From Elusimicrobiota bacterium (lineage in GTDB: Bacteria > Elusimicrobiota > Elusimicrobia > Elusimicrobiales > UBA9959), in the NCBI GenBank assembly GCA_012517235.1, contig JAAYVI010000037.1:15411-79410 (forward strand): a DNA stretch of 64,000 bases, in the 5' to 3' direction. The translations under genes were made by a program, and so were the position numbers. The notes beneath the pieces are model-generated. The model was given only the letters and a program-made list of their open reading frames with translations, was not told the origin of the DNA and ran no database searches. This document shows, piece by piece, positions 2,146 to 38,221 of this stretch (positions are counted from its first letter, which is position 1; each line of letters starts with the position of its first letter).

Positions 2146-2147
2146 AA

Positions 2148-2807: not shown

Positions 2808-2816
2808 AAAATCTCC

Positions 2817-3485: not shown

Positions 3486-3603
3486 TTTAATCTCCGCATA
3501 ACCTCTACTTTTTAACCTATTAATATTTTATAAAAATATTTTTCAAATATGACAAAATCGCGTCAAAAATTGTAAAATATCATAGGGTAAAACAGGAGAA
3601 AAA

Positions 3604-4404: not shown

Positions 4405-4458
4405 AAAATTATTAAGACGCGGCGACGGATAAATTAGGTATTTTGTAAAATATAACAT

Positions 4459-14610: not shown

Positions 14611-15344
14611 ACCAGTATTCCTTTCAAAGCTTGCGTTTCCATTATGACTTTATCCGATGGGAACTCTTTTTTTAAAAAAGAAACTATAAGATTTCTATTC
14701 GGCCGCTTACCTTCAAGCCTTACTCTCGAAGATAACTCCCTGTAAGCTTCTTCAATGTCTCCGCGCCAATTCCACGAAGATTCAAAAATTTCTTCTTTAA
14801 ATTTTATTTTTCTTTTTATCAATATATCCTTAAGATTATAAAATCCTTTTGGCATATACGGAGATATTCCGTGTAATAAAAGAACTTTATCGGCTATATC
14901 GTTTTTTCTTTTACCGGCCCATCCTATAAAAACACAATCCCCTTTTGTTAGCGACTCCATTTTTATCACGTCTTCTTCCGTTTTTATCGCCGGAGTCATT
15001 GAAGCAAAAGCTATGTCAAAGTATTTATATTTGCCGGCACAATCCCATTGTTCAAAAAGGGCTTGTTCGAAAAAAATATTTTTTATATTGCTATTTTTCA
15101 CTTGCTTTGAAAAATAATATATCATCTCGCTCGAAAAATCCAAACCAAAAACTTCGGCCGCTAGGTCGGCAAAAAGAATCGAATAATTGCCCGGTCCGCA
15201 TCCTATATCCAATATTTTTTTATGGTCAAAACAAACTCCCAATTTTTTTAATCTCGACATCGTTTCATTAAAAGATTTTATATTGTCTTTATCGTAAGCT
15301 TTAGGGTACTTTTCCGCTTTTATATTCCAAAAATTTTGATTCAT
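14598..15344 (-). CDS. Class I SAM-dependent methyltransferase (second copy in the locus)
   Basis: Motif I ILDIGCGPGNYS. It overlaps the downstream binding-protein gene by 13 nt. Confidence 0.75.
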   Translation of the reverse strand: MNQNFWNIKAEKYPKAYDKDNIKSFNETMSRLKKLGVCFDHKKILDIGCGPGNYSILFADLAAEVFGLDFSSEMIYYFSKQVKNSNIKNIFFEQALFEQWDCAGKYKYFDIAFASMTPAIKTEEDVIKMESLTKGDCVFIGWAGKRKNDIADKVLLLHGISPYMPKGFYNLKDILIKRKIKFKEEIFESSWNWRGDIEEAYRELSSRVRLEGKRPNRNLIVSFLKKEFPSDKVIMETQALKGILVWKP

Positions 15345-15354
15345 TTTTTTTATT

Positions 15355-17448
15355 TTAAAAAGATGCTTTTAAAGTTACTCCGCCTATCCTTCCGGCCATA
15401 GGATATCCGTATTTTTCAGAATATTTTTCATTGAACAAATTTTCGCAATAAGCGGAAAATTCCAAACTTTTATTGTACTTTAATTTATATTCCAAGGCAA
15501 AAAGAGAATAAGAAGATAGAACCGCAAGTTTATACTTATATGTTCCGGTTTTATAACTATAAACGGTTTTCTGATTGTCGGTAAATCTCCAAGAACCAGA
15601 AAAAGAAGATTTTTGACTCAAATAATATTGAACACCGATATTTGATTTGATTTTTGGCATATAATCCAATTCTTTCGATGTCCCGCTATCGTAGGGATCA
15701 TAGCCTTTTTTTGATTTTTGAAAAGAAAGATTGGCATAATAATCCATTTTTTTATTTTTTTTACCTCTGTAATCGGCAGAAAAACCGTATATGCGCACAT
15801 TGTCTATATTATAAACCGCCCTGCCGGAACCCGAGTTGATATCTGTTCTGAACATTATATAATTGTCTATATTGTAGTTGTATGCCGATAAAGTCAAGTA
15901 ATTCTCTTCTAATATTTTTTTGGAAAAAGAAAATTCCAGAGCCTGATTTTTTTCCGATTTAAGACTATTCGTCCCTCCCGTAATACCGCTCGACCACCAA
16001 TAGACTTCCGGCATTCCGGGCGTTCTCGATTTAATATAAGCTTTTAAAGAAATCTTATTTTCTTGCGAAAGATTCCAAGATAAACCCGCAGAAGGACTTA
16101 ATGACGAGTCATTGAGAGTTTTAACAGAAGATCCGTTAATAGGATTAACTTTATAGTCGTCATAACGTAATCCGCCTTCCAATAAAATTTTTTCAGACAG
16201 CGAAATTCTATCTTTGGCGTAATAAGCCCAAATTTTCCCCTCTTGACTGGCGGGTCCTCCCGTATAAGTTAAGTTATTGTTATAAGCTAAATCGTAATAA
16301 TATACGTTAATATCGCCAAAACCCAAATATTTATATTCCGCTCCCATTTCGAAGGAATTATTTTCTTTTTCTCCGGAAACATTAAAAGCGGTCCCCCAGC
16401 TTCTATCCGATTCCACTTTTCTATTAAGCACCAATAGTCCGTCTTGATATCCGGTTTTTATAAGATTTGAAGAATAATTTTTCTCAAATCTATTTTCTAT
16501 ATTTTTATACGCTTTAAATTCGCAATAAAACGAATATATCGGCTGTTTATATCCGAAATCAAGATATGTTTTTTCCTTTTCCCAAAAGGCGCCCGGCCCG
16601 GGTTGAAATATATTTTGATTTCCGGTGCCCGGAGCTATTACTTCTCCGAAAGCCAAGGGATAGTTCTCATCGTATTTTTGATAAAAAAGAGGGTTAGAAG
16701 GGTCCGCAGATTTTCTGTTATTTCTTATAAAACCTCTATTTGTATTGGAATAATTTCCTCCGATTTCCATTAAACCTTCGTAGGGCATATCGAAAAATAA
16801 ATTTATCCCGGCGTTTTTAGCCGCGTAGTCGTTATTCCAAAAAAATTCGTCCGCTTTCCCGTAACTTGCGCTAAAAGAATATCCGAATAGTCCTTTTTTC
16901 CAAGAATTGTATACTCTGTAATTTTGAATATAATCTATATCTTGCGCCAAAGAATAATTGGCAAAAAAACCGCTTTTCATTTCTTCGGAGGGAGGATTTG
17001 TTTTTATATTTATTACTCCTCCCAAAGCATTATTGCCGTATTTAACGTCGGATCCTCCTTTTATTAACTCTACCTTTTCTATATTATCCAGAGGAAGAGT
17101 AGACCAATCTATATAATACCCTCCGACTACGCCCGCGGCATTAAGGCTTCTTCCGTTAAGATTTAAAAGCAACCTATTTGAAGAAAGTCCGCGAATTGCC
17201 AACATATCCGCATTGTCGCTTACTATAGTTCTTCTTCTGATATCTACTTCCGGTTCGTTTTTTAATATGTCCGGCAAATATATATTTCTGCCTTTTTCCA
17301 CCGATTTAGTCGAAAAATCCGATATATTTTCGTCTTTCAAAGATTTTTCCGAAACTATTATTTCGCTGAAATTACCTTCGTAATAGCCAAAAGCGGATAA
17401 ATTGTAAAAGGCCAAAATTACAAAAATTGTTATTTTTTTAAAGTCCAT
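15355..17448 (-). CDS. TonB-dependent outer-membrane receptor
   Basis: Plug-domain motifs (IRGLSSNRLLLNLNGRSLN; VEKVELIKGGSDVKYGNNALGGVINI), a long beta-barrel region and a terminal F. Start ATG 17448 has AGGAGA upstream; the track start is a GTG. Confidence 0.9.
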   Translation of the reverse strand: MDFKKITIFVILAFYNLSAFGYYEGNFSEIIVSEKSLKDENISDFSTKSVEKGRNIYLPDILKNEPEVDIRRRTIVSDNADMLAIRGLSSNRLLLNLNGRSLNAAGVVGGYYIDWSTLPLDNIEKVELIKGGSDVKYGNNALGGVINIKTNPPSEEMKSGFFANYSLAQDIDYIQNYRVYNSWKKGLFGYSFSASYGKADEFFWNNDYAAKNAGINLFFDMPYEGLMEIGGNYSNTNRGFIRNNRKSADPSNPLFYQKYDENYPLAFGEVIAPGTGNQNIFQPGPGAFWEKEKTYLDFGYKQPIYSFYCEFKAYKNIENRFEKNYSSNLIKTGYQDGLLVLNRKVESDRSWGTAFNVSGEKENNSFEMGAEYKYLGFGDINVYYYDLAYNNNLTYTGGPASQEGKIWAYYAKDRISLSEKILLEGGLRYDDYKVNPINGSSVKTLNDSSLSPSAGLSWNLSQENKISLKAYIKSRTPGMPEVYWWSSGITGGTNSLKSEKNQALEFSFSKKILEENYLTLSAYNYNIDNYIMFRTDINSGSGRAVYNIDNVRIYGFSADYRGKKNKKMDYYANLSFQKSKKGYDPYDSGTSKELDYMPKIKSNIGVQYYLSQKSSFSGSWRFTDNQKTVYSYKTGTYKYKLAVLSSYSLFALEYKLKYNKSLEFSAYCENLFNEKYSEKYGYPMAGRIGGVTLKASF

Positions 17449-17476
17449 ACTATTCTCCTGTAACACGTTTATTAAA

Positions 17477-25665: not shown

Positions 25666-25857
25666 TTATCCTCCTTTTTTCTTATTTTCAGCTTCCATTA
25701 TAAGATTATAATGATAGCTTCCTTCTCTTACCAAAACTGTTTTACATAAAGGGCAGGTTTTATTTCTGCACCTTTCACCCTGTATGTGATTTTCCCTGTA
25801 CCCGCATTTATGGCAGACACAGTATCCGCCAAAACCCATATTTCCTCTCGAGTTCAT
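25666..25857 (-). CDS. Small Cys-rich zinc-ribbon-like protein
   Basis: 63 aa: GGYCVCHKCGY...ERCRNKTCPLCK. Its stop is 1 nt from the DUF5320 start. Confidence 0.5.
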   Translation of the reverse strand: MNSRGNMGFGGYCVCHKCGYRENHIQGERCRNKTCPLCKTVLVREGSYHYNLIMEAENKKKGG

Positions 25858-26339
25858 GATAGATTTTGCTCCTTTTTATGTAAGACAACAAAAATCTCTT
25901 TTACTTCCCGCGAGACGGCTTTTACAATCTCTCTCATCTCTCCCGAGCTCAAAAGCTTCATAAGTCCGCCGTTCATCATGGCAATATATGTTTTGCCGTC
26001 TTTTTTTTCATAAACAGAAACAGCTTTGGGAGAAAAAACCGAAATTTTTTTTCTTGAATCTGCGGAAAACATCATTGAAGCAAACCCGCCATGGCAGTAA
26101 TGTATAATCGCAATTCTTCCGACAGGAGACCCTCCGTTTGCGACTATTTCGCTTCCTTGATCTATTACGCCGAAAAGATGCCAGCCTTTTTTATTTGAGA
26201 TTCTCTCTTTTATAATGTTTATGGTTTCCTCATAACCGTAAGCGCTGGGAAATTCTTTTATCATAATATTTAAAAAAGATTCCCTTAATAAAAAAGCCGC
26301 AAACAGGATAATGCAGACCGATATAAAACAAAATGTCAT
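25854..26339 (-). CDS. DUF302-domain protein with N-terminal membrane anchor
   Basis: 161 aa. N-terminal hydrophobic segment, then a DUF302-like core (WHLFGVIDQG...IHYCHGG). It overlaps both neighbours by 4 nt. Confidence 0.55.
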   Translation of the reverse strand: MTFCFISVCIILFAAFLLRESFLNIMIKEFPSAYGYEETINIIKERISNKKGWHLFGVIDQGSEIVANGGSPVGRIAIIHYCHGGFASMMFSADSRKKISVFSPKAVSVYEKKDGKTYIAMMNGGLMKLLSSGEMREIVKAVSREVKEIFVVLHKKEQNLS

Positions 26340-26845
26340 TTTACCTCCCGATTTTCTTTTTTACACTTTTCGCAAAAGCCATAAAAATGCAACGAATGTC
26401 CTTTTATAAGAAAATTATGCCGGTTTGAAAGAGTTTTTTCTATTTTATTGAAAAAATCTCTTTCTTCGTCCATAAAGTCATAGTATTCCATTATTTTTCC
26501 GCAATTGGAACAAACCAGATGATGATGGTGGCTGCCGCCTTCATGCCCGTCGGATAATTCATATTTGGCTTTTCCCTCTCCAAAATCAAATCTATTTAGC
26601 ACACCCGACGAAGACAAGGCAGATAGCGTGCGATAAACGGTAGCTATTCCAAGCCCGGGATATCGCAGTGCCAACTTGGCAAAGACCTCTTCGGCAGTAA
26701 AATGGCCTTTTTCATGGTGAAAAAAATCAACTATTGCCCGCCTTGGACCTGTAATTCTGCCGCCGCTTCTGTTAAAACAACCGCGAAGACGACCTTCGCG
26801 GCAACATGAAAAATTTAATCTTGCATTTTTTTTATTGATATTCAT
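26336..26845 (-). CDS. fur: Fur-family metalloregulator
   Basis: Winged-helix segment (ITGPRRAIVDFF...GIATVYRTL), a HHHHLVCSNCG ... FYGFCEKC structural CxxC pair and a His-rich site. ATG 26845 is preferred, because the track TTG at 26881 is the -35 hexamer. Metal specificity (Fur/Zur/Per) is not determinable by eye. Confidence 0.85.
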   Translation of the reverse strand: MNINKKNARLNFSCCREGRLRGCFNRSGGRITGPRRAIVDFFHHEKGHFTAEEVFAKLALRYPGLGIATVYRTLSALSSSGVLNRFDFGEGKAKYELSDGHEGGSHHHHLVCSNCGKIMEYYDFMDEERDFFNKIEKTLSNRHNFLIKGHSLHFYGFCEKCKKENREVK

Positions 26846-26854
26846 TATCAATAA
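26832..26854. promoter_or_regulatory. Perfect 9-5-9 inverted repeat, Fur-box-like, overlapping the fur start codon
   Basis: Minus strand reads TTATTGATA-ATGAA-TATCAATAA. It contains GATAATGA, as in the classical Fur box, and the ATG inside the spacer is the fur start. Confidence 0.6.
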
Positions 26855-26881
26855 GATATCAAAAAAAAATAAACCTGTCAA
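26853..26881 (-). promoter_or_regulatory. Candidate promoter of the fur-headed operon
   Basis: TTGACA (26881-26876), 17 nt, TATCTT (26858-26853). The -10 ends 7 nt before the ATG and there is no Shine-Dalgarno, so this is leaderless geometry. Confidence 0.5.
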
Positions 26882-26986
26882 GTATAAGATTTTTTAAAGT
26901 TAATTATTTTGTTTTAAATATCCTTTTACAATATGCTTAAAATAAAAAGATTACTCTAAAATAATCCGTATTTAACCTTTTAATTA

Positions 26987-27814
26987 TTATATTGAGGATT
27001 TTTTTATTTTTTCTCTATTTTCCGAAGAGACTGTTTTTTTATTTGTTTTTTTTCTATTGGATTTGCGGTATTTTCTCGGTATTCTTTCCCAATATCTTAT
27101 ATCTCCTATATCCACGTGAACGAATCCCATGGTAGGGTAATATCCTACTCCTCCGGCTTCCAATTTTCTGGCAAAATTCTTTATAGCCCTTGAAGAATAC
27201 CCTTGAATTTTTATATCCGCCGCCCACCCCAACATATGAAGGCTTTGCTTTGCCGCTCCCGGCACTATCTCGTTTAAATCTTTTGTTCTATATCCGCTTA
27301 AAAGTATTATCCCTTTTTTGCCGAACTTGTCTTCAATCGCGTCCAATATTTCGACCAAAAGCTTAGGTGTTTTTATTTCCGCATCCTCCAAAGAACAACG
27401 CATTATATGTTTTATAGACTCAAAAGCCTCTTCTAAATATGCCCCGTCCTTATCCCTGTATGTGACGGTAATACTTTCCCCCGTATCTTTTCTCGTTATA
27501 GTTATATTTCCGTTTCCCCCTAAATTTTTAGGTTCCGGTTCGACTATGGGATAGGTGCTTATGAATATTTCTTCGCCGTATTCTCCGCTGGTTTCCACAA
27601 ATTCTATATCTTGCTCATTATATGTTACCGTGGATAGTTCGCTTTCAAATTCTTCGGTGGATTCCTGCAAATCGAAAGAAGAAGTCGAAGAAGAAACCGA
27701 ATCGGGTTCGAGTGTGGGTAAATCGGAAAGAGACAAAGCCGCATTACCGAGAAAAATCATTTCGGCTTGAGCAAAAGAAGCAAAAAACAAAATTAATGCC
27801 GCTTTTAGAAACAT
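26987..27814 (-). CDS. DUF882/peptidase M15A-family (YcbK-like) secreted protein
   Basis: Signal peptide MFLKAALILFFASFAQA. Metal-ligand motifs SLHMLGWAADI and GFVHVDIG. ATG 27814 is preferred over the track TTG. Confidence 0.75.
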   Translation of the reverse strand: MFLKAALILFFASFAQAEMIFLGNAALSLSDLPTLEPDSVSSSTSSFDLQESTEEFESELSTVTYNEQDIEFVETSGEYGEEIFISTYPIVEPEPKNLGGNGNITITRKDTGESITVTYRDKDGAYLEEAFESIKHIMRCSLEDAEIKTPKLLVEILDAIEDKFGKKGIILLSGYRTKDLNEIVPGAAKQSLHMLGWAADIKIQGYSSRAIKNFARKLEAGGVGYYPTMGFVHVDIGDIRYWERIPRKYRKSNRKKTNKKTVSSENREKIKKSSI

Positions 27815-27865
27815 TATTTTAATTTTAGCAAATAGAAAAGACAAATGCGCAATATTTATTTTTGT

Positions 27866-27942
27866 TGGTCGGGGCGGCCGGATTTGAACCGGCGGCCTTC
27901 CGCTCCCAAAGCGGACGCTCTAGCCAGCTGAGCCACGCCCCG
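27866..27942 (-). tRNA. tRNA-Pro (anticodon TGG), CCA encoded
   Basis: Hand-folded cloverleaf: CGGGGCG/CGCCCCG acceptor, GCTC/GAGC D stem, TCCGC-TTTGGGA-GCGGA anticodon arm, GCCGG-TTCAAAT-CCGGC T arm, then ACCA. Confidence 0.95.
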
Positions 27943-27965: not shown

Positions 27966-28433
27966 TCAATACATGAAAATTCTTAAAGTGATATTTGCAA
28001 ATATGCCGGCGGCCATATCGTCCAAAGTGATCCCCAATCCGCCTTTTATGTTTTTATCAAGCCATCTTATGGGCCAGGGTTTTAATCCGTCATATATCCT
28101 GAAAAAAACAAAAGCGATTATCAAATAATTAATTTCCTTAGGTAAAAAGACCAAAGACAGCATATAACCCGCCGTTTCGTCTATTATTATTCTTTGATCG
28201 TCTTGAGTTTTATATAAAGCGGACGCCCCGGATGCGGCCGCAAATGACAAAAAGCAAATTGCCAAAGAAAAAGCGAAATAGATATTATCGTTAAAAGGGA
28301 AAAAATAAACCAAAACAAGACCGAATAATGTTCCTATGGTTCCGCCGCCGTAATACTTGCCGGTTAGCTTATAAGGCAATTTTCCCAAATAAAAATCGGT
28401 GGCTAAAAATTCCCAGATTTTTTGACTATTCAT
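27966..28433 (-). CDS. pgpA: PgpA-family phosphatidylglycerophosphatase A-like lipid phosphatase
   Basis: GGGTIGTLFGL, IIDETAGYM and LKPWPI motifs of the PgpA family. 155 aa, membrane-embedded. Confidence 0.8.
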   Translation of the reverse strand: MNSQKIWEFLATDFYLGKLPYKLTGKYYGGGTIGTLFGLVLVYFFPFNDNIYFAFSLAICFLSFAAASGASALYKTQDDQRIIIDETAGYMLSLVFLPKEINYLIIAFVFFRIYDGLKPWPIRWLDKNIKGGLGITLDDMAAGIFANITLRIFMY

Positions 28434-28476
28434 AAATTAATTATATCAAAGTAGGAGATTAATAAAAAACGAAACC

Positions 28477-29799
28477 TTAGGCCGCCGTATTTTCGTAATA
28501 CTCTTTTCCCAAATGCGTTATCAATGTTTCTCCCATAAGATGTCTTAAGTTATTTTCCAGTTTTTCCAATTGGACGAAAAGATCGTTTTCGGGATAAACT
28601 TCTTTTGCGTGCATCGGACTTTTGAAATAAAAAGAGAGCCACTCCTGTATGCCGGCAAGACCGGCTCTTTTGGCCAAATCCATAAACAATACAAGGTCCA
28701 AAGCTATGGGAGCCGCCAATATCGAATCGCGGCATAAAAAATTTATTTTTATTTGCATAGGATAATTCAGCCATCCGAATATGTCTATATTGTCCCAGCT
28801 TTCTTTATTATCCCCTCTGGGAGGGTAATAATTAATTCTTACCTTATGATAAAGTTCTCCGTACAATTGAGGATATTTTTCCTGTTCCAATATGCTTTCC
28901 AATACGGACAATTTGCTAACCTCTTTTGTTTTAAAAGAGTCGGGGTCGTCCAATACCTCTCCGTCTCTGTTTCCCAAAATATTTGTCGAAAACCAGCCGT
29001 TTACTCCTAACATTCTGGCTTTCATACCGGGCGCTATTATGGTTTTCATAAGAGTCTGACCCGTTTTAAAATCGGCTCCGGCCAAAGGAACGCCTTTCGA
29101 CAAAGACAGAGATATCAAAGCCGGTATATTGCAAGAAAGATTGGGAGCCCCGTTTATAAAAGGCAGCCCTTCCATAATGGAGGAATAAGCGTAAATCATG
29201 GAAGGAGATATGAGAGGATCGTTATTTTTCAGTCCTTTTTCAAACTTTTCCAAAGAAGAATGGACTTCGCTTTCTTCTATGTAAACTTCGGTGGAAGCGC
29301 ACCAAATCATAACGGCTCTGTCTAATTTATTTTTCTTCTTAAAATCTCTGATATCTTTTCTAAGCATTTCGGCCAATTCCATCTTATTTTTGGCTTCCTT
29401 AATCCATGAACCGCTGAGATTTTTGACATATTTTCTGTCAAATACGGCTTTCATAGGTTTATACGAAGAAAGTTCTTTTTTCAATCTTTCTATGTGCGGT
29501 CTGTCCAAAACGGAGGCCTTTTTGGCGGATTCGTAAAGGTTTTCGTTAAAAATATCCCATCCGCCGAATACCAGATCTTCAAGTTCGGACAAGGGAACAA
29601 AATCTTTTATCAAAGGACATCTTTTCTCCGTTCTTTTTCCGAGCCTTATTCTTCCCATTTGAGTAAGAGAACCTATGGGCTTATCTTCTCCTTTTTTTAT
29701 ACCTTCTACTCCGCCGATTATGGTGGTAGTAATCGCTCCGCAAAATCCGGGTATTAAAACTCCGAGTTTTCCTTTGGCGGGTTTTATTTTATTTTTCAT
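28477..29799 (-). CDS. myo-Inositol-1-phosphate synthase
   Basis: About 440 aa. GVLIPGFCGAITTT Rossmann start, WCASTE, FINGAPN and DSILAAPIALDLVLFMDLAKRAG resemble bacterial/archaeal MIPS. The second ATG (29799) has better SD spacing than the track start. Confidence 0.8.
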   Translation of the reverse strand: MKNKIKPAKGKLGVLIPGFCGAITTTIIGGVEGIKKGEDKPIGSLTQMGRIRLGKRTEKRCPLIKDFVPLSELEDLVFGGWDIFNENLYESAKKASVLDRPHIERLKKELSSYKPMKAVFDRKYVKNLSGSWIKEAKNKMELAEMLRKDIRDFKKKNKLDRAVMIWCASTEVYIEESEVHSSLEKFEKGLKNNDPLISPSMIYAYSSIMEGLPFINGAPNLSCNIPALISLSLSKGVPLAGADFKTGQTLMKTIIAPGMKARMLGVNGWFSTNILGNRDGEVLDDPDSFKTKEVSKLSVLESILEQEKYPQLYGELYHKVRINYYPPRGDNKESWDNIDIFGWLNYPMQIKINFLCRDSILAAPIALDLVLFMDLAKRAGLAGIQEWLSFYFKSPMHAKEVYPENDLFVQLEKLENNLRHLMGETLITHLGKEYYENTAA

Positions 29800-30388
29800 T
29801 TCCATCCTCCGTTAAAATTCCGTTCAAAACTTTTCTCGTATACATTATTCTCTGTAAAACCGTAAAATGCGAAATAGCCGCAACTAAAATTATACCTATT
29901 TCGGTTTTGTTTAACAAAACCGACAAGGCTATGACTATAAGTCTTGCAAGTCTATCGCCTATCCCGACAGAACAGCTTTTAATTTCTTTTTCCGCTCTGG
30001 CTCTCGCATAAGGAACGGTCAGAGCGCCTATCATGGCCAGAACGCAATATAGAACTTCAAGGGATTTGCCCTGTACGGAATAAGCGTAAGCAAAAGCCGC
30101 CAGAACCAATCCTTCCGTATATCTGTCTATGACAGAGTCGAAAAAACCGCCGAACTTTGTTATTTGTCCAGTATGCTTGGCCAAAGCGCCGTCTAATACG
30201 TCAAAAATCCAGGTAAAAATAACTATTATTATTCCTTTTTTAAATTCTCCGCGGGCTATATGATAAACCCCAAAAATATTAAGCCCCGCCCCCAAAAGAG
30301 TCAGGTGATTGGGACGCAGAGACAGTTTTTCGAATATCGGAGCTATCGGAATAAAAAGTTTCATTATCAACGGGTCAAGTTTTCTCAT
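29789..30388 (-). CDS. CDP-alcohol phosphatidyltransferase (phosphatidylinositol-phosphate synthase-like)
   Basis: Full signature D-x2-DG-x2-A-K-x8-G-x3-D-x3-D in FDVLDGALAKHTGQITKFGGFFDSVIDRY. 199 aa, about 6 TM. It overlaps both neighbours. Confidence 0.85.
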   Translation of the reverse strand: MRKLDPLIMKLFIPIAPIFEKLSLRPNHLTLLGAGLNIFGVYHIARGEFKKGIIIVIFTWIFDVLDGALAKHTGQITKFGGFFDSVIDRYTEGLVLAAFAYAYSVQGKSLEVLYCVLAMIGALTVPYARARAEKEIKSCSVGIGDRLARLIVIALSVLLNKTEIGIILVAAISHFTVLQRIMYTRKVLNGILTEDGNEK

Positions 30389-32744
30389 TTTTTACCTCAA
30401 TTTTTTCCCAAACGGAAAGCAAAGGCAAAAGAAAAGCCGCGGCGGAAATAAAAGCGCAAAATATTCCCATAACCGAAACCTGTCCTATGCTTTTTAATCC
30501 CTGATGATTTGCCATAAGCAAAGTAGAAAATCCCAGCATCGTAGTTAAAGCGGACATAAAAACCGCCGGACCGGTATGAGTAAGTACAAAATATACCGAG
30601 TTTTTTCCTTCCTGTTTATATCGGCTATAAAAATATTCTCCGTAGTCCAGACCGAGACCGAATATCAAAGGCAGCATAAGAACATTAAAGAAATTCAAAT
30701 CTATGGAAAAAAACAAAAGTCCGCTTAAAAGAAGCAAAAGAGTTACGGCCAGATGCGCGGAAAGAAAAAATAGAGCTTTAAAACTTTTATAAGCCAAAAA
30801 TATCGGAAGCAAAGTTCCGAGAAAAGAAAGAACCATTATTATTTTTCCGTCCTTTTCTATCATCCTTAAAATTTCGGAAAATATCACCGACTCGCTTACC
30901 GGATGAAGGGTTTCGTCGCCCGCGGGCAAGTCTCTTATTTCATCGGAAGCTTTCCTCACCAGCAAGACATCGCTTAAACTTATTTTGGGAAATATGTAAA
31001 CGGCCGTCTTTCCGCTTTCTCCGTAAAACATTCTATATATTTCCTTAGGTAAATTATTTTTTGTAACCTCTTGAGGAGTTAAAAGTTTTTTAACGTCTTC
31101 TATTTTCTTTTTTTGTTCTTCGCCTAAAGAATTTAAAGCGTTATCTTCCAATATTTTTTTAATTTTTTTTAATTCCGATATTTTTTCTTTTTGGTCAAAA
31201 GGCATAAATGTCAAAACGGAAGCATGAGAATCTATGGTAGTATCGGGATTTTTTTCCTTTGAAGACAATAAATCGGAAACCTGTTTTGCCTGATAAAGAG
31301 ATTTTACAAGAACTATATCCGGGGTAAGAGAGGTTCCTATTATATCGTTTACTCTCTTATCCAGAGCGAAAGAAGGTATATTTGAACCCTGTATTTTATT
31401 AAAATCGTATTCGAAAGATAATTTTTTGATATTGGCAAGAGAATAAAAACATAATATGAAAATAAGCGATAACGAAACAAATCTTACTGAGATTTTAGGA
31501 GCCTTTAGAGAAAAAGAGAAAGCCGGCTTATATTTGGGTTCTTTTATTTTTTCAAAGAGTATTATCATCGCCTGATGCAATGTCATGAAAACTATAAAAT
31601 TTATCACTACGCCGGCTCCGGCTATTATGCCGAATTGAGAAAAACCCTTAAACTCTGCTATGGCCAAACTAAAAAAAGAAGAACAGGTAGTCATAGCGGC
31701 TATGAGCAAAGAAGAACCAGCCGTCAAAAAAGACGTTTCCATCGCCGATTCGGAAGAAGCTCCCGAGATTTTTTCCTCCATATACCTGCTGTAAAAAACT
31801 ATTCCGTAATCCATACCTATTCCCATAAGTATGGAAAAGAGAAAACCGCTTATTATATTGAGATATCCGACGGTCAAATACGCAAAAGCCAAAGTTATTA
31901 TTATTCCCAAAAAAAGAGGTATCCCGACCAAAAACGCTCCTCTTATCTGTCTGAAGAAAAAAAACAAAATGAAAGAACCCAAAAGAAGAGAACCCGCTAT
32001 GGTAAATCTTATATCCTTGGTAAGCTGATCGTTCAAATCTATTTGCTTTTTATATCTTCCGGTTAACTCTACGGATAAGTCCTCTCCGTAGGATTTAGGA
32101 TTAAGCGAAGCCGCCAAACTTAGAACATTTTTTTCCAATTCTCTTGAAAACTTCAAATCGCCGGCCAAACCGTTAGGTTTTATCAAAAGAACAAGTTCTT
32201 TACCGTCGGAACTTTCGTAATATTCCCTGAAAACGTCTTTACCTTCGTATTTTTTCTCTATATCCGAAAGATCCAATTTATAGTCTTCCTCGAGCAGATC
32301 TATAAACAAAGGATTTGCTTTCTTTTTTTCAAAATCTATCTTTTTCTCGACCCTTTTTCTTATTTCCCTAAGGTCGTCCAAATCCGCAAATAAAAGCTTT
32401 CTGTCTTCAAAAAACTTCTTCGGCTGCTTCCAATTCACATATTTTACTTGGGGAAGTTTTTCCAATTCTTTGGTAAAAACGTAGGAAAAATTTTTTGCCG
32501 CTTTGGGGTCTTTGGATTTTACCACGGCCACCAAATATCCGGTTCCGCCGAATTCCTTTGTCACTTCGTCCAAAGTAAGAACGCTTTTGAAGGTTTTTGG
32601 AAGTAAAGATTCGAAATTTGCCTCAAATTTTATTTTGACGGCAAAATAAAAAGAGAAAAGCGATATAAAAAAATAAAAAAAGATTATTTTAAGATAATTT
32701 CGGCGCAAAAAAGCATTGTAAGATTTGAAAAATTTATTTTTCAT
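30375..32744 (-). CDS. RND-superfamily transporter of the MMPL/HpnN-like lipid-exporter type
   Basis: 789 aa. Two repeats, each a large soluble loop followed by a block of about 5-6 TM helices (around aa 235-400 and 640-780). There is no AcrB-like periplasmic porter sequence. Confidence 0.7.
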   Translation of the reverse strand: MKNKFFKSYNAFLRRNYLKIIFFYFFISLFSFYFAVKIKFEANFESLLPKTFKSVLTLDEVTKEFGGTGYLVAVVKSKDPKAAKNFSYVFTKELEKLPQVKYVNWKQPKKFFEDRKLLFADLDDLREIRKRVEKKIDFEKKKANPLFIDLLEEDYKLDLSDIEKKYEGKDVFREYYESSDGKELVLLIKPNGLAGDLKFSRELEKNVLSLAASLNPKSYGEDLSVELTGRYKKQIDLNDQLTKDIRFTIAGSLLLGSFILFFFFRQIRGAFLVGIPLFLGIIITLAFAYLTVGYLNIISGFLFSILMGIGMDYGIVFYSRYMEEKISGASSESAMETSFLTAGSSLLIAAMTTCSSFFSLAIAEFKGFSQFGIIAGAGVVINFIVFMTLHQAMIILFEKIKEPKYKPAFSFSLKAPKISVRFVSLSLIFILCFYSLANIKKLSFEYDFNKIQGSNIPSFALDKRVNDIIGTSLTPDIVLVKSLYQAKQVSDLLSSKEKNPDTTIDSHASVLTFMPFDQKEKISELKKIKKILEDNALNSLGEEQKKKIEDVKKLLTPQEVTKNNLPKEIYRMFYGESGKTAVYIFPKISLSDVLLVRKASDEIRDLPAGDETLHPVSESVIFSEILRMIEKDGKIIMVLSFLGTLLPIFLAYKSFKALFFLSAHLAVTLLLLLSGLLFFSIDLNFFNVLMLPLIFGLGLDYGEYFYSRYKQEGKNSVYFVLTHTGPAVFMSALTTMLGFSTLLMANHQGLKSIGQVSVMGIFCAFISAAAFLLPLLSVWEKIEVKNEKT

Positions 32745-34056
32745 CGGCCAATCGATCCAGTCCGCAGTTTTTGGCCAAATCGGCTATAGCCATATTATAA
32801 TCGTAAATAGATTGATAATAATCTTTTTGAGCCTGTGCCCTTGCGGCCAATCCTTCCAGAGCTTCTTTTACGTCTCCGGTACCCAATCCGTAAGTAAGCC
32901 CCGCCGACATAACCCATTTTTCGGCGGCATCCAAAGCCTTTTTCATAGATATCACATTTGCCGCCGCTTCTTTGGCCGTATAGTAAGAATTTTTTACCTG
33001 AAGAGTTATTCCTTCTCTGGCAAAGCGCTCTTTCGCTTTAAGCTGGTCCACTTCGGCTTTTTTTTCGGCAATTTTGGCTTTAAGCGTTTTGGGCGAGAAG
33101 TCGAATTTTGCCCCGACGGCGGCTCCTCCGTATAAATTATTATAATTATCGTTTAACCAGGGATTCTTTTGATCTTTCGCCGTCCAGGCTTTATCGTAAA
33201 CAGCTTCTCCGGCCAAAAAAAACACGGGATACCTGTCGGCCTTTTCGGCTTCCAAAAGAAAAGATTTGGCTTTTATTCCGTCGGATATCATAAACCATTC
33301 CGGTCTTTTCCGGAAAGCCAACGACACGTAATAATCCGCGTCTTTAAGTTCGTAAGGGTCTCTGGCGAGCTTAACGTCTTTTATATCAAAATTCTCGTCT
33401 TCTTTCATTCCCATGGAACGCATAAGAGCCAGACGAGCCATTATGACGCCTTTATCCGCTTCGTTTAAGTATTTTTCCGCCGTTCCCAAATAGAATTTGA
33501 GTTTTTCCAGATCGCTCTTTTTAATTTCTCCGGACCCGCTTTCGTATAACTGCGAAGCTTTTGTCACGGCATCTTCCAAAATTTTTTTTACCTCTTCGAC
33601 CGTTTTTTTAAGAGTTCTTGCCAGCAAAAGAGAGTAATAATATTTTTTAACTTCGTAAGCTATTTCGTTTTCTTTTTGTTTTTTTTCGCTTTTTGCGACT
33701 TTTATTCCGTGTCGAGCGGCGGCGGTATAAGCTTCTATTTTCCCCCACGTATATATCGGCATTTTAAATTCTATTTTACCGTGAATATAAGGTCCCCATG
33801 TGCCGTAATCTCTTTCGTAAGAATATGCGTCTCCCGTAATTTTATACATAGGCGCGGCATAAGTAAGAAAAGAAAATTTCGGATTTGACGCGTCTTCGGC
33901 CTGTTTTTTAGCCGATTCGTACTTTACGGAATTAAGAGAAATTTCCGTTATTTCCGGATTATTTTCGTATGCGTATGAGACGCAATCGTCAATGCCGTAA
34001 TAAGTTTGGGACTGAGCCGAAGAAGCAAATAAAAAAATTAAAACAAGGAAAATCAT
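32734..34056 (-). CDS. TolC-family outer-membrane efflux protein
   Basis: Signal peptide, then YGIDDCVSYAYENNPEI (the typical OEP start), with two coiled-coil/barrel repeats. 440 aa. Confidence 0.8.
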   Translation of the reverse strand: MIFLVLIFLFASSAQSQTYYGIDDCVSYAYENNPEITEISLNSVKYESAKKQAEDASNPKFSFLTYAAPMYKITGDAYSYERDYGTWGPYIHGKIEFKMPIYTWGKIEAYTAAARHGIKVAKSEKKQKENEIAYEVKKYYYSLLLARTLKKTVEEVKKILEDAVTKASQLYESGSGEIKKSDLEKLKFYLGTAEKYLNEADKGVIMARLALMRSMGMKEDENFDIKDVKLARDPYELKDADYYVSLAFRKRPEWFMISDGIKAKSFLLEAEKADRYPVFFLAGEAVYDKAWTAKDQKNPWLNDNYNNLYGGAAVGAKFDFSPKTLKAKIAEKKAEVDQLKAKERFAREGITLQVKNSYYTAKEAAANVISMKKALDAAEKWVMSAGLTYGLGTGDVKEALEGLAARAQAQKDYYQSIYDYNMAIADLAKNCGLDRLADEK

Positions 34057-34682
34057 TTTTTAGTATCCGCGGAATTTAATTTTTTCCTCATTAATTTCAA
34101 CAATTCCTGAAAACCTTTTTCTTTTATTATGGACATATGCTGATTCCTATATATCAACAGCAAACTGTCGCCGTCGGTTATCACATCGTAAATACGCCAA
34201 TTCCCCGACTTATTTTTAAGCAGGAATTTGGTAGAAAGAATAAATTCGTCGTTCGGATACGTTATTCTAACTCCGACTTCCCTGTCTCCGGACGGCATTT
34301 TAGATTCCGAAAGGTACTCTATTTTAAGATCCTTATTGAAATAAGATCCTATCTGAGGATATCCGATTTTTTCGACCAGAGACGAAAGGAGATCGGCATA
34401 TTGAATTTTTTCGCTTTCTTTTAAGGAGCTCCATTTGTTTTTGAGTATCAGCGAAGCCATTTCTTTCAAATCCAGTATCGAACTTATTTTCTCTCTTATT
34501 TTAATTCGAGATTCTTTTTCTTCCTTGGAAATTCCTTTTTCGTTTTCGTCCTTATACTTTTTCGCCGTTTCTATTAAAAGCTTAACGCTATCGGTAGCCG
34601 GGGTTTCGGATTCTTGAGAAAAACAAAAATTAAGAGTCATATTAAACGTCAAAACGATAAGTAATATTTTTTTCTTTGTCAT
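34053..34682 (-). CDS. MlaC/Ttg2D-like periplasmic lipid-binding protein
   Basis: Signal peptide MTKKKILLIVLTFNM..., then ILDLKEMASLILKNKWSSL...NWRIYDVITDGDSLLLIYRNQ, matching the MlaC pattern (W.iyDv.i.G.S). ATG 34682 has GGGAG upstream. Confidence 0.7.
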   Translation of the reverse strand: MTKKKILLIVLTFNMTLNFCFSQESETPATDSVKLLIETAKKYKDENEKGISKEEKESRIKIREKISSILDLKEMASLILKNKWSSLKESEKIQYADLLSSLVEKIGYPQIGSYFNKDLKIEYLSESKMPSGDREVGVRITYPNDEFILSTKFLLKNKSGNWRIYDVITDGDSLLLIYRNQHMSIIKEKGFQELLKLMRKKLNSADTKK

Positions 34683-34751
34683 AATTCCGCTCCCGAATTG
34701 CAAGAACAAGGCTTTATTTTATAATATTATTTTAGCATAATCGGAGGGGCG

Positions 34752-36041
34752 ATGTTTTCTTATTACAAAAGACTTAAAAAGGATTTGGATTTTTGCGCTC
34801 AGGAAGGAATTACAAACAAAGAAACGGCCGATCTTATATACGATAAAATCTATTCAAGAAAAAAAAATCTTCCGGAGGCGTCGCTAATAATAACGATATT
34901 GGGAGCGGTTTTAATAGCCGCGGGAAGCATATTAATAATATCTCACAATTGGAATAAAATATCCGACGTGGTAAAGATATTGTCTTACTTAATTCTATAT
35001 GCCTTGGTCGGAACGGCGGCCATTAAGGCGCAAGAAAATTCGCCCGTAAAAATGAGCGCGGCGATTATATGGTTTTTCATGCCCATAATAGGATTCGGTT
35101 TATACGGACAAATATTTCAAATTTCATCCGACCCTTTAAAACCTTTTATGGCTTGGGCGATAATAAGCGCTCCTTTAGTCTGGTTTTTAGAACAAAAAAA
35201 GTTATTGTTTATTTGGGAAATTCTTTTCTATGGCATTCTGTTTTTCGGATTTTCGAAAAGCAGCTTATTCGAACTTTATTCGAATAAACCATTGGATATC
35301 TATTTTATTCAAACTTTTATTTTTTATTGCGCCTCGTTTTACTTTTTAAAAACGGCCTGGGAAAAGTTTTCTTCCCAAAAATGTCCTTCCAGAATTTTTG
35401 CGGCGGCGATGATTTATCTTTTCTTTTTTTCATATTCGATTATAAGAAACGAAAAATTCTTTTTCTTTTCTCTGTTCTTTGCGGCATCGGCTTTATTCAA
35501 TGCTTGGGAAGAGGAACTACCTCGATTTTATTTTATAGTTTTTTCTTTTCTTTCTTATATTTTTTCCTTCAAAAATTCGTTTACATGGTCTCACGGATAT
35601 ATGCCGGACTTTAACTCGGTTAAAACCTGGCTCGCTTTCCTCGCTTGTCTTTATTCTTTAATTTACTCTTATTACAAATCCGTAAAAATACGAGATAATC
35701 CCGTCGTTTACCCCATATTGGCTCTTTTGGCCTCCGCTTTATTAAGAACATTTTCTTTAATTAACAATTTCTGGATAGTTATTTTCCATAATGTCTTTTT
35801 AATATGGCTTATAATATCTTCCCTTTCCTACGCTTCCAAAACGGGAAACAGAAAACTTATAAATTTCGGCATATTTTTATTTTCATTGCTGCTAATATCG
35901 AGATTTATTGATTTGTTCGGAGAATTGGGATTTATTAAAACGGGAATCGGTTTTATCTTTTGCGGATTATTGCTTATAGCCGCTTCATATTATCTTAATT
36001 TATGGAGAAAAAAACTCATAAATGAAACGGAGAACAGATGA
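34752..36041 (+). CDS. DUF2157-like polytopic membrane protein
   Basis: 429 aa with a soluble N-terminal about 40 aa, then 10 or more TM segments. GGAGGGG RBS. Confidence 0.55.
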   Translation: MFSYYKRLKKDLDFCAQEGITNKETADLIYDKIYSRKKNLPEASLIITILGAVLIAAGSILIISHNWNKISDVVKILSYLILYALVGTAAIKAQENSPVKMSAAIIWFFMPIIGFGLYGQIFQISSDPLKPFMAWAIISAPLVWFLEQKKLLFIWEILFYGILFFGFSKSSLFELYSNKPLDIYFIQTFIFYCASFYFLKTAWEKFSSQKCPSRIFAAAMIYLFFFSYSIIRNEKFFFFSLFFAASALFNAWEEELPRFYFIVFSFLSYIFSFKNSFTWSHGYMPDFNSVKTWLAFLACLYSLIYSYYKSVKIRDNPVVYPILALLASALLRTFSLINNFWIVIFHNVFLIWLIISSLSYASKTGNRKLINFGIFLFSLLLISRFIDLFGELGFIKTGIGFIFCGLLLIAASYYLNLWRKKLINETENR

Positions 36042-36565
36042 AATTAAAAATACTTCTTTTACTTCAATTGATATTTTTTGCCGTCATGGGCGGATGGTTC
36101 TATCTAAACAGAGAAAAATATATAGCCGAATTTTGGCTTGAAACCGTTCCCGCCGATCCCAGGGACTATATTTCGGGCACATATAACGAACTAAGATACG
36201 CTCAAGAGTCTAAAGCGCAAGAGTGTTTATCCGAAATATACGATAAAAAAACATACAAATATTCGGCTTATCTCGAATTCGGTCCCTCGGAAAAAAAATT
36301 CGAACTAAAAGACGGAGGAAGCGGATATTTTTACGAAATTAAGAATTGTTCTTTTGAAAAAAAAGAAGGCAAATATTGGATTCTCACGGATATTTCTTAT
36401 AAAAACTCCAAAATCGTTCCGATTTTTCCTCATAAATTTTTTCTAAACGAAAACGACGAAAGAAAAAATATAAGTTCGGGAAAGGCCGCAGTCAAATTTA
36501 GAATACTAAAAAATAAAAAGTTGGGCTTGATAGATTTAAAAGAAACAAAGAATGAAAATATTTAA
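36038..36565 (+). CDS. GDYXXLXY-domain protein
   Basis: N-terminal TM, then PADPRDYISGTYNELRY, which contains the G.Y..L.Y signature. ATGA overlap with the upstream gene. Confidence 0.65.
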   Translation: MKLKILLLLQLIFFAVMGGWFYLNREKYIAEFWLETVPADPRDYISGTYNELRYAQESKAQECLSEIYDKKTYKYSAYLEFGPSEKKFELKDGGSGYFYEIKNCSFEKKEGKYWILTDISYKNSKIVPIFPHKFFLNENDERKNISSGKAAVKFRILKNKKLGLIDLKETKNENI

Positions 36566-37259
36566 TTTTTTTATAATTTCGGCGTTCGTATGTTCTTATT
36601 CCTTTGCGGAAAAAGTAAAGATTAAAACCGAAGACGGATGCGTTATTTACGGAGAAAAACATATTTTCTCATCGTCCTCGACAATACTGCTCGAAATACA
36701 CGGCTTGGGTTCGAATAAGGAAGAATGGAACAAATTTAATACTTTTATAAAAAAAGAAAAAATTAATTATTTGGCCGTAGATTTAAGAGGTCACGGAGAA
36801 AGCATAATCTGCGAAGGACAAAAAATAGATTATAAAAGTTTTTCTAAAGAAGATTGGCAAAAGATACCTCTTGACTTAGATGCCGCCTATTCCTATTTGA
36901 TTAAAAAATACCCCGACTTTAATATAATTCCCGCCGGCGCAAGCATAGGAGCAAATGCCGCGGCAATTTTTTCAAAAAGCAAAAAAATATCCAAACTTAT
37001 TTTATTGTCTCCCGGATACGATTACGGCGGATTAATGCCGGAAAAATATTTATCGGAAAGTAAAGCGAAAATATTATTTTTTTATTCTCCTTCGGACGAA
37101 TATTCGGCCAAATCGTGCTCTTTCTTTAAAAAAATTTGCGATTTTAAAAAACTAAAATGTAATTTTAAAACCGCCCGATACGGACACGGCGTACAAATAT
37201 TCGATTCCGCCGAAGGCGAAACTTACGCCGAAGAAATAATAAACTTTATAAAAAAATAG
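36552..37259 (+). CDS. Secreted alpha/beta-fold hydrolase
   Basis: Signal peptide, HGLGSNKEEW and the nucleophile elbow GASIGA (G-x-S-x-G). Confidence 0.7.
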   Translation: MKIFNFFIISAFVCSYSFAEKVKIKTEDGCVIYGEKHIFSSSSTILLEIHGLGSNKEEWNKFNTFIKKEKINYLAVDLRGHGESIICEGQKIDYKSFSKEDWQKIPLDLDAAYSYLIKKYPDFNIIPAGASIGANAAAIFSKSKKISKLILLSPGYDYGGLMPEKYLSESKAKILFFYSPSDEYSAKSCSFFKKICDFKKLKCNFKTARYGHGVQIFDSAEGETYAEEIINFIKK

Positions 37260-37288: not shown

Positions 37289-37383
37289 GGACTAAAGACT
37301 GTTTTTTTTCGGGACCAAAGACCATTGATTATAATCAAAGTTCATTGTTCAATATACCTATATTAAACAGGGACTTTGGTCCC
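37289..37383 (+). repeat. Three copies of GGAC(C/T)AAAG(A/T)C (two direct, one inverted) plus a 14-nt palindrome, upstream of the trypsin gene
   Basis: GGACTAAAGAC at 37289-37299 and GGACCAAAGAC at 37312-37322. Inverted GGACCAAAGTCC at 37371-37382. TTGATTATAATCAA at 37325-37338. GGGACCAAAG at 37311-20 is the exact complement of CTTTGGTCCC at 37374-83. Confidence 0.7.
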
Positions 37384-37396
37384 ATGCGGAGGAAAA

Positions 37397-38221
37397 GTGA
37401 AAAAAATAGCATTAGCGGCAATACTCTCGGTCTCGTTTTCAAACGCGAAAGCCGAAGACCTTAACATAGAAAACGTAAACATACCGCAGCTTCTTTCTGC
37501 GGTGGAACTTCCCGCACCTTTAAATCCCGGCATACAAAAGATAGTGGGAGGAGTCGAGGCTAATTCCGGCGAATTTCCGTTTATAGTGTCTCTTCAGCAT
37601 TCCTATTACGGACATTTTTGCGGAGGATCTCTTATAGCCAAAAATTGGATTCTTACGGCGGCGCATTGCGTAGACGGCATAACCCCTTCTTATATCTTGA
37701 TAGGACTTCAAAATCAATCGGATGCTTCTCAGGCCGAAAAATTCACCCCGGTAAAAATAATAAAACATCCCAACTGGGACAGCAATACGATGACGGCAGA
37801 CTATGCTCTCATAAAACTAAGCGGAGAAAGCAAATATCCGGTTATAAAAATGAACTCCAAAGAAATAACCGGCACTCCGACTTTCACGGTTGCCGGATGG
37901 GGAGTTACCAGCGAAAGCTCTCAGTCCGTTTCAAAAAAACTTATGAAAGTCGACGTTCCTTTCGTAGATCAGCAGACATGCTCCTTAGCGTATCCGGACT
38001 CCATAAACGATTATATGATTTGCGCCGGATTTAAAGACGGAGGAAAAGATTCCTGTCAGGGAGACAGCGGCGGTCCTCTCGTAATGGGAACGGGTTCGTC
38101 GAGAGTTTTGGTAGGCGTAGTAAGCTGGGGAGAAGGCTGCGCCAGACCGAACAAATACGGAGTTTATTCCAAAGTTAAAAATGCGGTGGAATGGGTAAAC
38201 TCTCAAATGAAATCCAATTAA
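37397..38221 (+). CDS. Secreted trypsin-like serine protease (chymotrypsin fold, S1A-like)
   Basis: IVGG activation site, TAAHC (His), DYALIKL (Asp), GDSGGPL (Ser), and D before the catalytic Ser region (GKDSCQGDSGGP), giving trypsin-type S1 specificity. The GTG start has GGAGG 4 nt upstream. Confidence 0.9.
   Translation: MKKIALAAILSVSFSNAKAEDLNIENVNIPQLLSAVELPAPLNPGIQKIVGGVEANSGEFPFIVSLQHSYYGHFCGGSLIAKNWILTAAHCVDGITPSYILIGLQNQSDASQAEKFTPVKIIKHPNWDSNTMTADYALIKLSGESKYPVIKMNSKEITGTPTFTVAGWGVTSESSQSVSKKLMKVDVPFVDQQTCSLAYPDSINDYMICAGFKDGGKDSCQGDSGGPLVMGTGSSRVLVGVVSWGEGCARPNKYGVYSKVKNAVEWVNSQMKSN

Follow-up and report, generated by a model that had tools for sequence, protein, structure and literature searches.

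Do bacteria that synthesize inositol phospholipids also encode a dedicated route for moving these lipids out of the inner membrane? The question is raised by a cluster of six genes in a 64,000-nucleotide (nt) stretch of DNA from an Elusimicrobiota bacterium (assembly GCA_012517235.1, contig JAAYVI010000037.1, positions 15,411 to 79,410), which is referred to here as the window. Six intact open reading frames (ORFs) occupy positions 27966-34682 of the minus strand (the longest ORF span reaches up to 34709) in the order MlaC-like protein, TolC-family outer-membrane protein (OEP), HpnN/MmpL-like RND transporter, PIP-synthase-type CDP-alcohol transferase, myo-inositol-1-phosphate synthase (MIPS) and PgpA-family phosphatase, PIP being phosphatidylinositol phosphate. 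ORF coordinates together with Pfam and NCBIfam matches bear out the order and identities proposed in an initial annotation of the sequence. We put the probability at about 0.6 that these genes form one operon whose products make phosphatidylinositol (PI) and move it out of the inner membrane.

The genes meet in short overlaps of 4 nt (ATGA) between MlaC and OEP, 11 nt between OEP and RND, 14 nt between RND and transferase, and 11 nt between transferase and MIPS (17 nt if the more upstream ATG of MIPS is used). A 43-nt gap then separates MIPS from PgpA. These measured junctions agree with the overlaps of 4-14 nt and the 43-nt gap reported initially, and a simple scan of the operon finds no convincing internal terminator. 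For the MlaC-like gene the most probable start codon is the ATG at 34682; a GGGAG ribosome-binding site precedes it, and the frame that it opens encodes a signal peptide.

Twelve further Elusimicrobiales contigs, whose RND proteins are 50-84% identical to that of the window, share the MlaC-OEP-RND-transferase-MIPS order, indicating that the arrangement is not a matter of chance. PgpA follows MIPS on either strand in these relatives, and contigs that are cut agree in their visible part. The nearest genome contigs are Elusimicrobiota/Elusimicrobiales metagenome-assembled genomes (MAGs), with an RND protein 73% identical in JAJUJA010000035. Identical genes are found in groundwater metagenome assemblies, and the stretch is also present in hot-spring, microbial-mat and bioreactor metagenomes.

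Synthesis enzymes

MIPS (minus strand, 28477 to 29799 or 29805 depending on which of two ATG codons is used; 440-442 residues) contains both the NAD-binding and the catalytic domain of the family (PF07994, 5.1e-101; PF01658, 1.4e-33). By far its top match in the Protein Data Bank (PDB) is 7nwr (2e-173), an entry titled only "Inositol-3-phosphate synthase", which we take to be the Bacteroides thetaiotaomicron MIPS of Heaver et al. The window protein is 65-72% identical to MIPS from many phyla, and 66-72% to that of Bacteroidota loci.

The CDP-alcohol phosphatidyltransferase (29789-30388, minus strand; 199 residues; PF01066, 6.7e-16) appears to be of the inositol-phosphate-accepting, PIP-synthase-like type. 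Its best NCBIfam models are archaetidylinositol-phosphate synthase (AIPS; NF040950, 5e-39), PIP synthase (PIPS; NF045883, 1.7e-30) and the BT_1523 type (3.7e-24), while the pgsA model reaches only 4.3e-07; the inositol-type models lead pgsA and pssA by more than 60 bits. The CDP-alcohol motif reads D63xxD66G67xxA70K71x8G80xxxD84xxxD88 (reference DxxDGxxAR...GxxxDxxxD), and Asp63, Asp66, Gly67, Ala70, Gly80, Asp84 and Asp88 are invariant among the Elusimicrobiales relatives. PDB matches are 6h53 (6e-14; deposited as CDP-diacylglycerol--inositol 3-phosphatidyltransferase), the PIP-synthase fusion 6wm5, and 5d91. Furthermore, basic residues of the transferase align with Lys135, Arg137, Arg152 and Arg155 of 6h53.

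A related transferase, di-myo-inositol-phosphate synthase (DIPPS), takes part in making a soluble osmolyte typical of thermophiles, and its model also matches the window protein (5.1e-16). This match, together with the occurrence of the organism in hot-spring metagenomes among others, would fit a cluster that produces di-myo-inositol phosphate instead of a lipid. The match amounts to 58.7 bits, however, against 134 bits for the lipid synthase model, and a link to lipid carriers would be senseless for a soluble solute. Neither an inositol-phosphate cytidylyltransferase (IPCT) nor an NTP-transferase domain is present in the 199-residue transferase, and none is encoded in the operon. Osmolyte synthesis was rejected on the absence of the cytidylyltransferase and is, in our estimation, extremely improbable.

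The PgpA-family lipid phosphate phosphatase (27966-28433, minus strand; 155 residues; PF04608, 5.7e-35) is a proposed PIP phosphatase. It belongs to the same family as Bacteroides BT_1525 and, like BT_1525, is clustered with MIPS and the transferase; no PDB relative was found for it by sequence. The PgpA-MIPS linkage is seen at every Elusimicrobiales locus that reaches past MIPS, and it recurs in Bacteroidota and Polyangia loci. In B. thetaiotaomicron the pathway of MIPS, PIP synthase and PIP phosphatase has been shown experimentally, with the PgpA-annotated BT_1525 as the PIP phosphatase (PMC9246714). The initial proposal that these three activities yield PI via PIP matches this pathway. Strong homology to characterised enzymes thus predicts the chemistry from glucose-6-phosphate through inositol-1-phosphate and PIP to PI.

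Proteins of the putative exporter

The RND protein (30375-32744, minus strand; 789 residues; PF03176 MMPL, 2.9e-39) has 12 predicted transmembrane helices and two large periplasmic domains. Asp-Tyr pairs are located in TM4 (GMD312YG) and TM10 (GLD700YG), an arrangement that we take to resemble the proton relay of MmpL3. The best NCBIfam models are two for HpnN (1.4e-82 and 1.2e-60) and one for BstA (5.6e-52), all under their curated cut-offs; the HpnN scores are 278.1 against 751.85 bits and 205.6 against 1100 bits. HpnN is also the PDB match by sequence (5khn, 1.4e-39). An AlphaFold (AF2) model computed from an alignment of 30 relatives has a pLDDT of 84.5, and Foldseek places HpnN structures at the top (5khn, 5khs and 6wu0, TM 0.72-0.74), followed by MmpL4/5, NPC1-like proteins, MmpL3 and Patched. 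By sequence and predicted fold, the protein is of the lipid-transporter type and nearest to HpnN.

Efflux pumps are usually recognised by an RND protein encoded beside one of the TolC family, and an ordinary drug or metal pump could have come to lie next to inositol genes by chance. The OqxB model, however, yields only 14.5 bits (cut-off 2200) against 278 for HpnN, neither AcrB nor CusA is among the top 50 fold matches of the model, and the cluster is without an adaptor gene. The neighbourhood is conserved across phyla, and two of the related loci (L096 and L250) encode a canonical OEP-HlyD-AcrB pump separately. The clustering with drug or metal exporters that the initial annotation had raised as a counter-indication is not observed, the nearest proteins by sequence and fold being HpnN and then MmpL and NPC1-type proteins. 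On the HpnN-type scores and fold, the efflux pump was rejected as effectively refuted, and we assign it next to no probability. True hopanoid transport by HpnN and HpnM was likewise rejected. The scores are far below cut-off, and the window encodes no squalene-hopene cyclase (shc) among all five of its ORFs of at least 586 residues (DUF748, TonB receptor, RND, GH114 and TPR proteins).

The MlaC/HpnM-like periplasmic lipid-binding protein (34053-34682, minus strand; 209 residues including the signal peptide MTKKKILLIVLTFNMTLNFCFS; PF05494, 2.9e-22) matches the HpnM model TIGR03481 at 2.7e-13, with 49.7 bits against a cut-off of 160.1. The nearest solved structures are MlaC of Neisseria gonorrhoeae (8dte, 3.2e-7) and of Escherichia coli (about 1e-5). 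The genes of the operon and of the scanned flanks include none for an MlaFEDB ABC/MCE complex or for MlaA.

The OEP (32734-34056, minus strand; 440 residues with a signal peptide) is a divergent member of the TolC family, with PF02321 in two repeats (1.8e-29) and TIGR01844 across its full length (1e-12); a sequence search of the PDB at E<=0.01 gave no match. Identities of 34-45% to the OEPs adjoining RND relatives in four other loci (L083, L085, L088 and L250) indicate that it belongs to a subfamily travelling with the RND protein. We note that in one Elusimicrobiales MAG (L091, 7931-9272) two overlapping ORFs seemingly make up the OEP gene, for which a frameshift, a sequencing error or decay to a pseudogene may account.

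Linkage to inositol-lipid genes across phyla

Relatives of the RND protein comprise 2150 cluster representatives below 1e-30, with identities of at most 39% outside the close clade. Eighty genome loci were retrieved through a six-sequence alignment and two peptide motifs, and neighbours were counted within 10 kb. A CDP-alcohol transferase is found at 35 of these loci (34 within 4.5 kb), a strong MIPS match at 15, and one or the other at 38. MlaC is present at 30 loci and OEP at 27; transferase, MlaC and OEP occur together at 22. All 37 linked transferases match inositol-phosphate-type models, and pgsA or pssA models are matched at 1e-5 by 10 of the 37; an N-terminal nucleotidyltransferase domain is present in 13. 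In a neighbour-joining tree the inositol-linked RND proteins fall in at least five separate clades.

The gene orders differ from clade to clade. Two loci (L085 and L088) read transferase-MlaC-RND-(DUF3047)-OEP, and in Polyangiaceae MIPS-transferase-PAP2_3-PgpA-RND is contiguous (L167). Corallococcus and one further locus (L128) have MIPS-PAP2_3-[transferase+GtrA] beside RND. Another locus (L252) carries transferase-HAD-NTP transferase-LPG_synthase_TM-MIPS beside an RND+Wzi protein; in gene content it equals the "alternative" Bacteroides/Prevotella inositol cluster (PMC9246714). Latescibacterota and Gemmatimonadota have the order OEP-[cytidylyltransferase+transferase fusion]-MlaC-RND, in which the fusion is IPCT/DIPPS-like (3.8e-74), in keeping with the route to inositol lipids by way of CDP-inositol that Heaver et al. 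discuss (PMC9246714).

DUF3047 recurs inside the MlaC-RND-OEP module (L133, 8004-9323; L088, 3380-3991; L174, 4545-5264) and is fused to an MlaC domain in L133; the pathway probably has in it a further periplasmic component. A literature search on this domain turned up only a metagenome survey of domains of unknown function.

Within Elusimicrobiales, some sister loci extend the cluster. Two have a gene for outer-membrane phospholipase A (PF02253, 2.5e-94) directly after MIPS, and five have added a gene of the LPG_synthase_TM family (PF03706). Extended clusters are those of L096 (14255-16697), L095, L093, L094 and L173. The LPG_synthase_TM gene recalls Bacteroides BT_1521 and HpnL of hopanoid clusters, the latter a member of the same broad family; an LPG_synthase_TM-annotated homologue beside Bacteroides inositol clusters was noted by Heaver et al. 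(PMC9246714).

Fusion proteins

Among the 150 closest RND cluster representatives, 12 carry a C-terminal PgpA domain (Pfam PgpA, 4.9e-37 in P0020). Two of these RND-PgpA fusions are seen in context, each directly after a PIP-synthase-like gene. One locus (L250) reads [transferase+GtrA]-[RND-PgpA]-MlaC-OEP with overlapping genes; in the other (L251), [transferase+GtrA]-[RND-PgpA] is accompanied by a divergent MIPS gene. The strongest single argument for the proposed function is that the last biosynthetic enzyme is joined to the transporter, suggesting that the transporter handles the product of the PI pathway. Fusions of MlaC with DUF3047 (L133) and of the transferase with GtrA point the same way; GtrA-like domains are proposed flippases of lipid-linked sugars.

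Conserved neighbourhoods in several phyla and the RND-PgpA fusions support a tie between the exporter and inositol-lipid synthesis, a functional connection that the initial annotation had proposed. This evidence supports a module of RND, MlaC and OEP that would act on an inositol lipid.

Other fusions are harder to place. P0034 (L252, 8001-12137) and P0137 are RND+Wzi proteins of about 1375 residues with a C-terminal Wzi-like outer-membrane barrel (PF14052, 4e-65), and P0034 is encoded beside the "alternative-type" inositol cluster and a GT4 glycosyltransferase. They pose the puzzle of an inner-membrane pump and an outer-membrane barrel in one polypeptide. P0009 (L253, 1-3694) combines RND and OEP domains in a single ORF of 1230 residues on a 4-kb contig, but translating the locus anew did not reproduce the query protein; it may be an artefact of a frameshift, of assembly or of gene calling.

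Proposed pathway and alternatives

In the proposed pathway, MIPS would convert glucose-6-phosphate to inositol-1-phosphate, which the PIP-synthase-like transferase would join to CDP-diacylglycerol to give PIP; the PgpA-family enzyme would then remove the phosphate to leave PI. Driven by the proton gradient through the Asp-Tyr pairs of TM4 and TM10, the RND protein would extract the inositol lipid from the inner membrane, take it up in its periplasmic domains and pass it to the soluble MlaC-like carrier. The carrier would bring the lipid to the dedicated TolC-family protein, which would receive or insert it. How the lipid would be handed over, in which direction it would move and what OEP would contribute are modelled on MmpL3, on HpnN with its proposed HpnM shuttle, and on MlaC. 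PI as the lipid product, the species transported and the outer membrane as destination are what we infer from these comparisons. A more general version, in which several phyla share a trans-envelope pathway from an HpnN-like RND protein, joined to the PIP phosphatase in some lineages, through an MlaC-like shuttle to an adaptor-free TolC-family protein that would insert the lipid in the outer membrane or expose it there, with newly made PI or inositol phosphoceramide as cargo, is a tentative extension that we hold to be possible and somewhat short of even odds.

Several observations weigh against the proposed pathway. The transferase scores below the curated equivalog cut-offs of its best models (134.1 against 180 bits for NF040950, 106.2 against 170 for NF045883 and 85.7 against 350 for the BT_1523 type) and has Lys71 in place of the motif Arg, so that its alcohol and its lipid donor are assigned provisionally. 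No membrane-fusion (HlyD/MFP) adaptor is encoded in the six genes or the flanking genes scanned; the exporter is therefore not tripartite in the AcrAB-TolC sense, and its initial description as "tripartite-looking" is inaccurate. No established case in which a membrane lipid is received by a member of the TolC family is known to us. The direction of transport, for which we argue by analogy, is not readable from sequence, and the RNA runs searched with the operon sequence gave no match.

Further points on the same side come from the comparative samples. No inositol gene is found within 10 kb at 42 of the 80 RND-family loci, a set collected by way of two peptide motifs and lacking phylogenetic independence. 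Leptospira, for example, has MlaC-RND only, without inositol genes, and the RND family therefore probably carries other lipids too. In a MIPS-centred sample of 80 loci (mostly Bacteroidota, Acidobacteriota and Ignavibacteria, together with the near-identical truncated L003), neither this RND nor MlaC is encoded within 10 kb of MIPS. The same is true of RND, MlaC or OEP near the transferase in a transferase-centred sample of 74 non-Elusimicrobia loci (Bryobacterales, Archaeoglobaceae, Thermodesulfobacteriota, Chloroflexota and others). With the RND gene at none of these 154 loci, bacteria that make inositol lipids do not generally need an adjacent exporter, and coupling as a general feature of MIPS/PIP-synthase clusters was rejected. 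As judged from gene neighbourhoods, the coupling is a recurrent property of the RND subfamily, not of inositol-lipid clusters in general.

The loci without inositol genes, Leptospira included, would also suit an exporter of phospholipids or other lipids in general, one that has no preference for inositol and adjoins the inositol genes only so that envelope biogenesis can be co-regulated. So would L083, where the partners of MlaC-OEP-RND are a PAP2_3 enzyme and an epimerase, and the capacity of MlaC proteins of known function to bind several phospholipids. We nevertheless regard such a general exporter as unlikely, given that the neighbouring transferases are without exception of the inositol-phosphate type and not pgsA or pssA, that RND-PgpA fusions directly follow PIP-synthase-like genes with MIPS nearby (L251), and that the pairing recurs in separate RND clades with differing gene orders.

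Comparably unlikely, though plausible, is a cargo other than PI bound for the outer membrane, whether PIP, a modified inositol lipid such as glycosylated PI or inositol phosphoceramide, or an amphiphile released to the cell surface or the medium through the TolC-like channel. The window operon contains no glycosyltransferase or PAP2_3 gene, and both the PgpA reaction and the fusion of PgpA to RND speak for a cargo that has lost its phosphate. In favour of another cargo are the normal function of a TolC-family channel as an exit duct to the outside, the RND proteins fused to a Wzi-like surface-assembly barrel, and the PAP2_3 or glycosyltransferase genes that adjoin RND in relatives, PAP2_3 presumably being the Pfam family of yeast AUR1/inositol phosphoceramide (IPC) synthase.

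A retrograde or quality-control module like Mla, returning mislocalised inositol lipid from the outer to the inner membrane, is less likely still. It draws on the general assignment of E. coli MlaC to retrograde transport and on the phospholipase A gene after MIPS in two sister loci, which encodes another factor in the maintenance of outer-membrane asymmetry. The characterised RND lipid transporters HpnN and MmpL3, on the other hand, export using the proton gradient, and a transporter linked or fused to the last biosynthetic enzyme fits the export of newly made lipid.

Comparison with known systems

The synthesis genes resemble the Bacteroides BT_1522-BT_1526 region, in which MIPS, a PIP-synthase-type transferase and a PgpA-annotated PIP phosphatase are clustered (BT_1523/1525/1526), and mycobacteria also proceed via PIP. 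The Bacteroidota clusters examined differ in having no RND, MlaC or dedicated OEP gene. The window transferase is only 26-36% identical to Bacteroidota-type transferases and scores higher on archaeal AIPS and actinobacterial PIPS models, and the window lacks a PAP2_3/IPC-synthase gene. Heaver et al. make no mention of transporters (PMC9246714).

The exporter side invites comparison with hopanoid transport. On the basis of microsynteny, Lawrence et al. have proposed a route through HpnN and HpnM (and HpnS) (bioRxiv 10.1101/2025.07.29.667474). In both cases an RND protein of the HpnN fold (5KHN/6WU0) without an adaptor is encoded beside an MlaC-family protein and genes for the synthesis of a specialised lipid, and an inner-to-outer-membrane route is proposed from gene neighbourhood. 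The two differ in that the window RND and MlaC-like proteins are far below the HpnN and HpnM cut-offs, the linked chemistry is that of an inositol phospholipid, and the outer-membrane partner is of the TolC family here and an MlaA-like lipoprotein (HpnS) there. The preprint mentions neither inositol nor TolC (bioRxiv 10.1101/2025.07.29.667474). By sequence comparison, the synthesis half of the operon adds a new member to the PIP-route clusters already known, and the export half is analogous to the HpnN-HpnM family and stands outside it.

Other transporters share single features with the window system. The MmpL proteins belong to the same MMPL Pfam subclass of RND, have the TM4/TM10 Asp-Tyr pairs, and export newly made envelope lipids, often from loci beside the synthesis genes of the lipid. 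Their sequence similarity to the window protein is low, however (E values of 1e-5 to 1e-10), their envelope and periplasmic partners differ, and we know of no mycobacterial MmpL that carries PI. The Mla system has a soluble MlaC-family periplasmic carrier in common with the operon, in which RND and the outer-membrane factor replace the ABC transporter, the MCE protein and MlaA. AcrAB-TolC likewise places an RND protein beside a TolC-family factor; here the adaptor is missing, the RND protein falls outside the HAE1 and HME types, and the operon encodes an MlaC-like carrier instead. BstABC of Methylococcus transports sterols, and its HpnN-like RND protein, BstA, presumably works with partners that bind lipids in the periplasm and at the outer membrane. 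The BstA model (NF045600) gives the window protein 177 bits against a cut-off of 1400, and the BstA partners are of other families and its cargo is a sterol.

The searchable literature yielded no paper linking inositol-lipid genes to RND, MlaC or TolC genes, and no transporter linked to bacterial inositol lipids; subscription journals were thinly covered, and an earlier description is possible.

Operon borders and neighbouring genes

Upstream of the MlaC-like gene lies a divergent intergenic region of 69 nt (34683-34751), A+T-rich and with -10-like elements, which presumably contains the promoter of the operon. The region is shared with a divergent set of genes on the plus strand (34752-37259) encoding DUF2157, GDYXXLXY and alpha/beta-hydrolase proteins, which is syntenic in two relatives (L001 and L084). 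Beyond it, positions 37376-38221 (plus strand) encode a secreted-looking serine protease of the eukaryote-type Trypsin family (PF00089, 2.3e-60), also found in the syntenic L084.

The downstream end of the unit is marked by a tRNA-Pro(TGG) gene (27866-27942, minus strand; ARAGORN and Rfam RF00005, 69 bits), whose position is kept in L001 and L003. The L003 contig is binned as "Melioribacter", and its MIPS and PgpA are 92% and 95% identical to those of the window; the bin label is probably wrong. In this contig about 3.8 kb (1631-5461) separate the tRNA-Pro gene from an M15 peptidase gene. Five same-strand ORFs fill the interval, with alternating sizes of 280, 197, 283 and 197 residues and then one of 89, and may represent an insertion at the tRNA. 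In the window, the genes downstream of the tRNA (25854-27844, minus strand) encode an M15 (MepK-like) L,D-endopeptidase, a Fur-family regulator and a DUF302 protein.

Two larger clusters lie further away. An iron- or cobalamin-type uptake cluster (12498-17466, minus strand) encodes a TonB-dependent receptor, an FecCD permease and a periplasmic binding protein; the receptor is consistent with a diderm envelope. A Pel-type exopolysaccharide locus (49055-61849, plus strand) comprises a PelD-like GGDEF protein, a DUF3492+GT1 (PelF-like) protein, PelG (7.7e-125), a GH114 (PelA-like) protein and a large TPR (PelB-like) protein.

Significance

How particular lipids move from the inner to the outer membrane of diderm bacteria is largely an open question. 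To our knowledge, dedicated routes are known or proposed for only a few special lipids, namely lipopolysaccharide, hopanoids, sterols and mycolates. In Bacteroides, inositol lipids were recently shown to be important for expression of the capsule, for resistance to antimicrobial peptides and for colonisation of the gut. The operon described here, its cross-phylum relatives and the RND-PgpA fusions constitute a concrete and testable candidate for an inositol-lipid transporter. The presence of relatives in cultured Corallococcus species (Myxococcota) may make experiments feasible. The proposal extends the hypothesised logic of an RND protein with an MlaC-like shuttle from hopanoids to a class of phospholipids, and it suggests a role for TolC-family proteins that needs no adaptor. 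The multi-phylum version, if true, would for the first time give an outer-membrane factor a part in lipid delivery and diderm bacteria a dedicated exporter of a phospholipid class.

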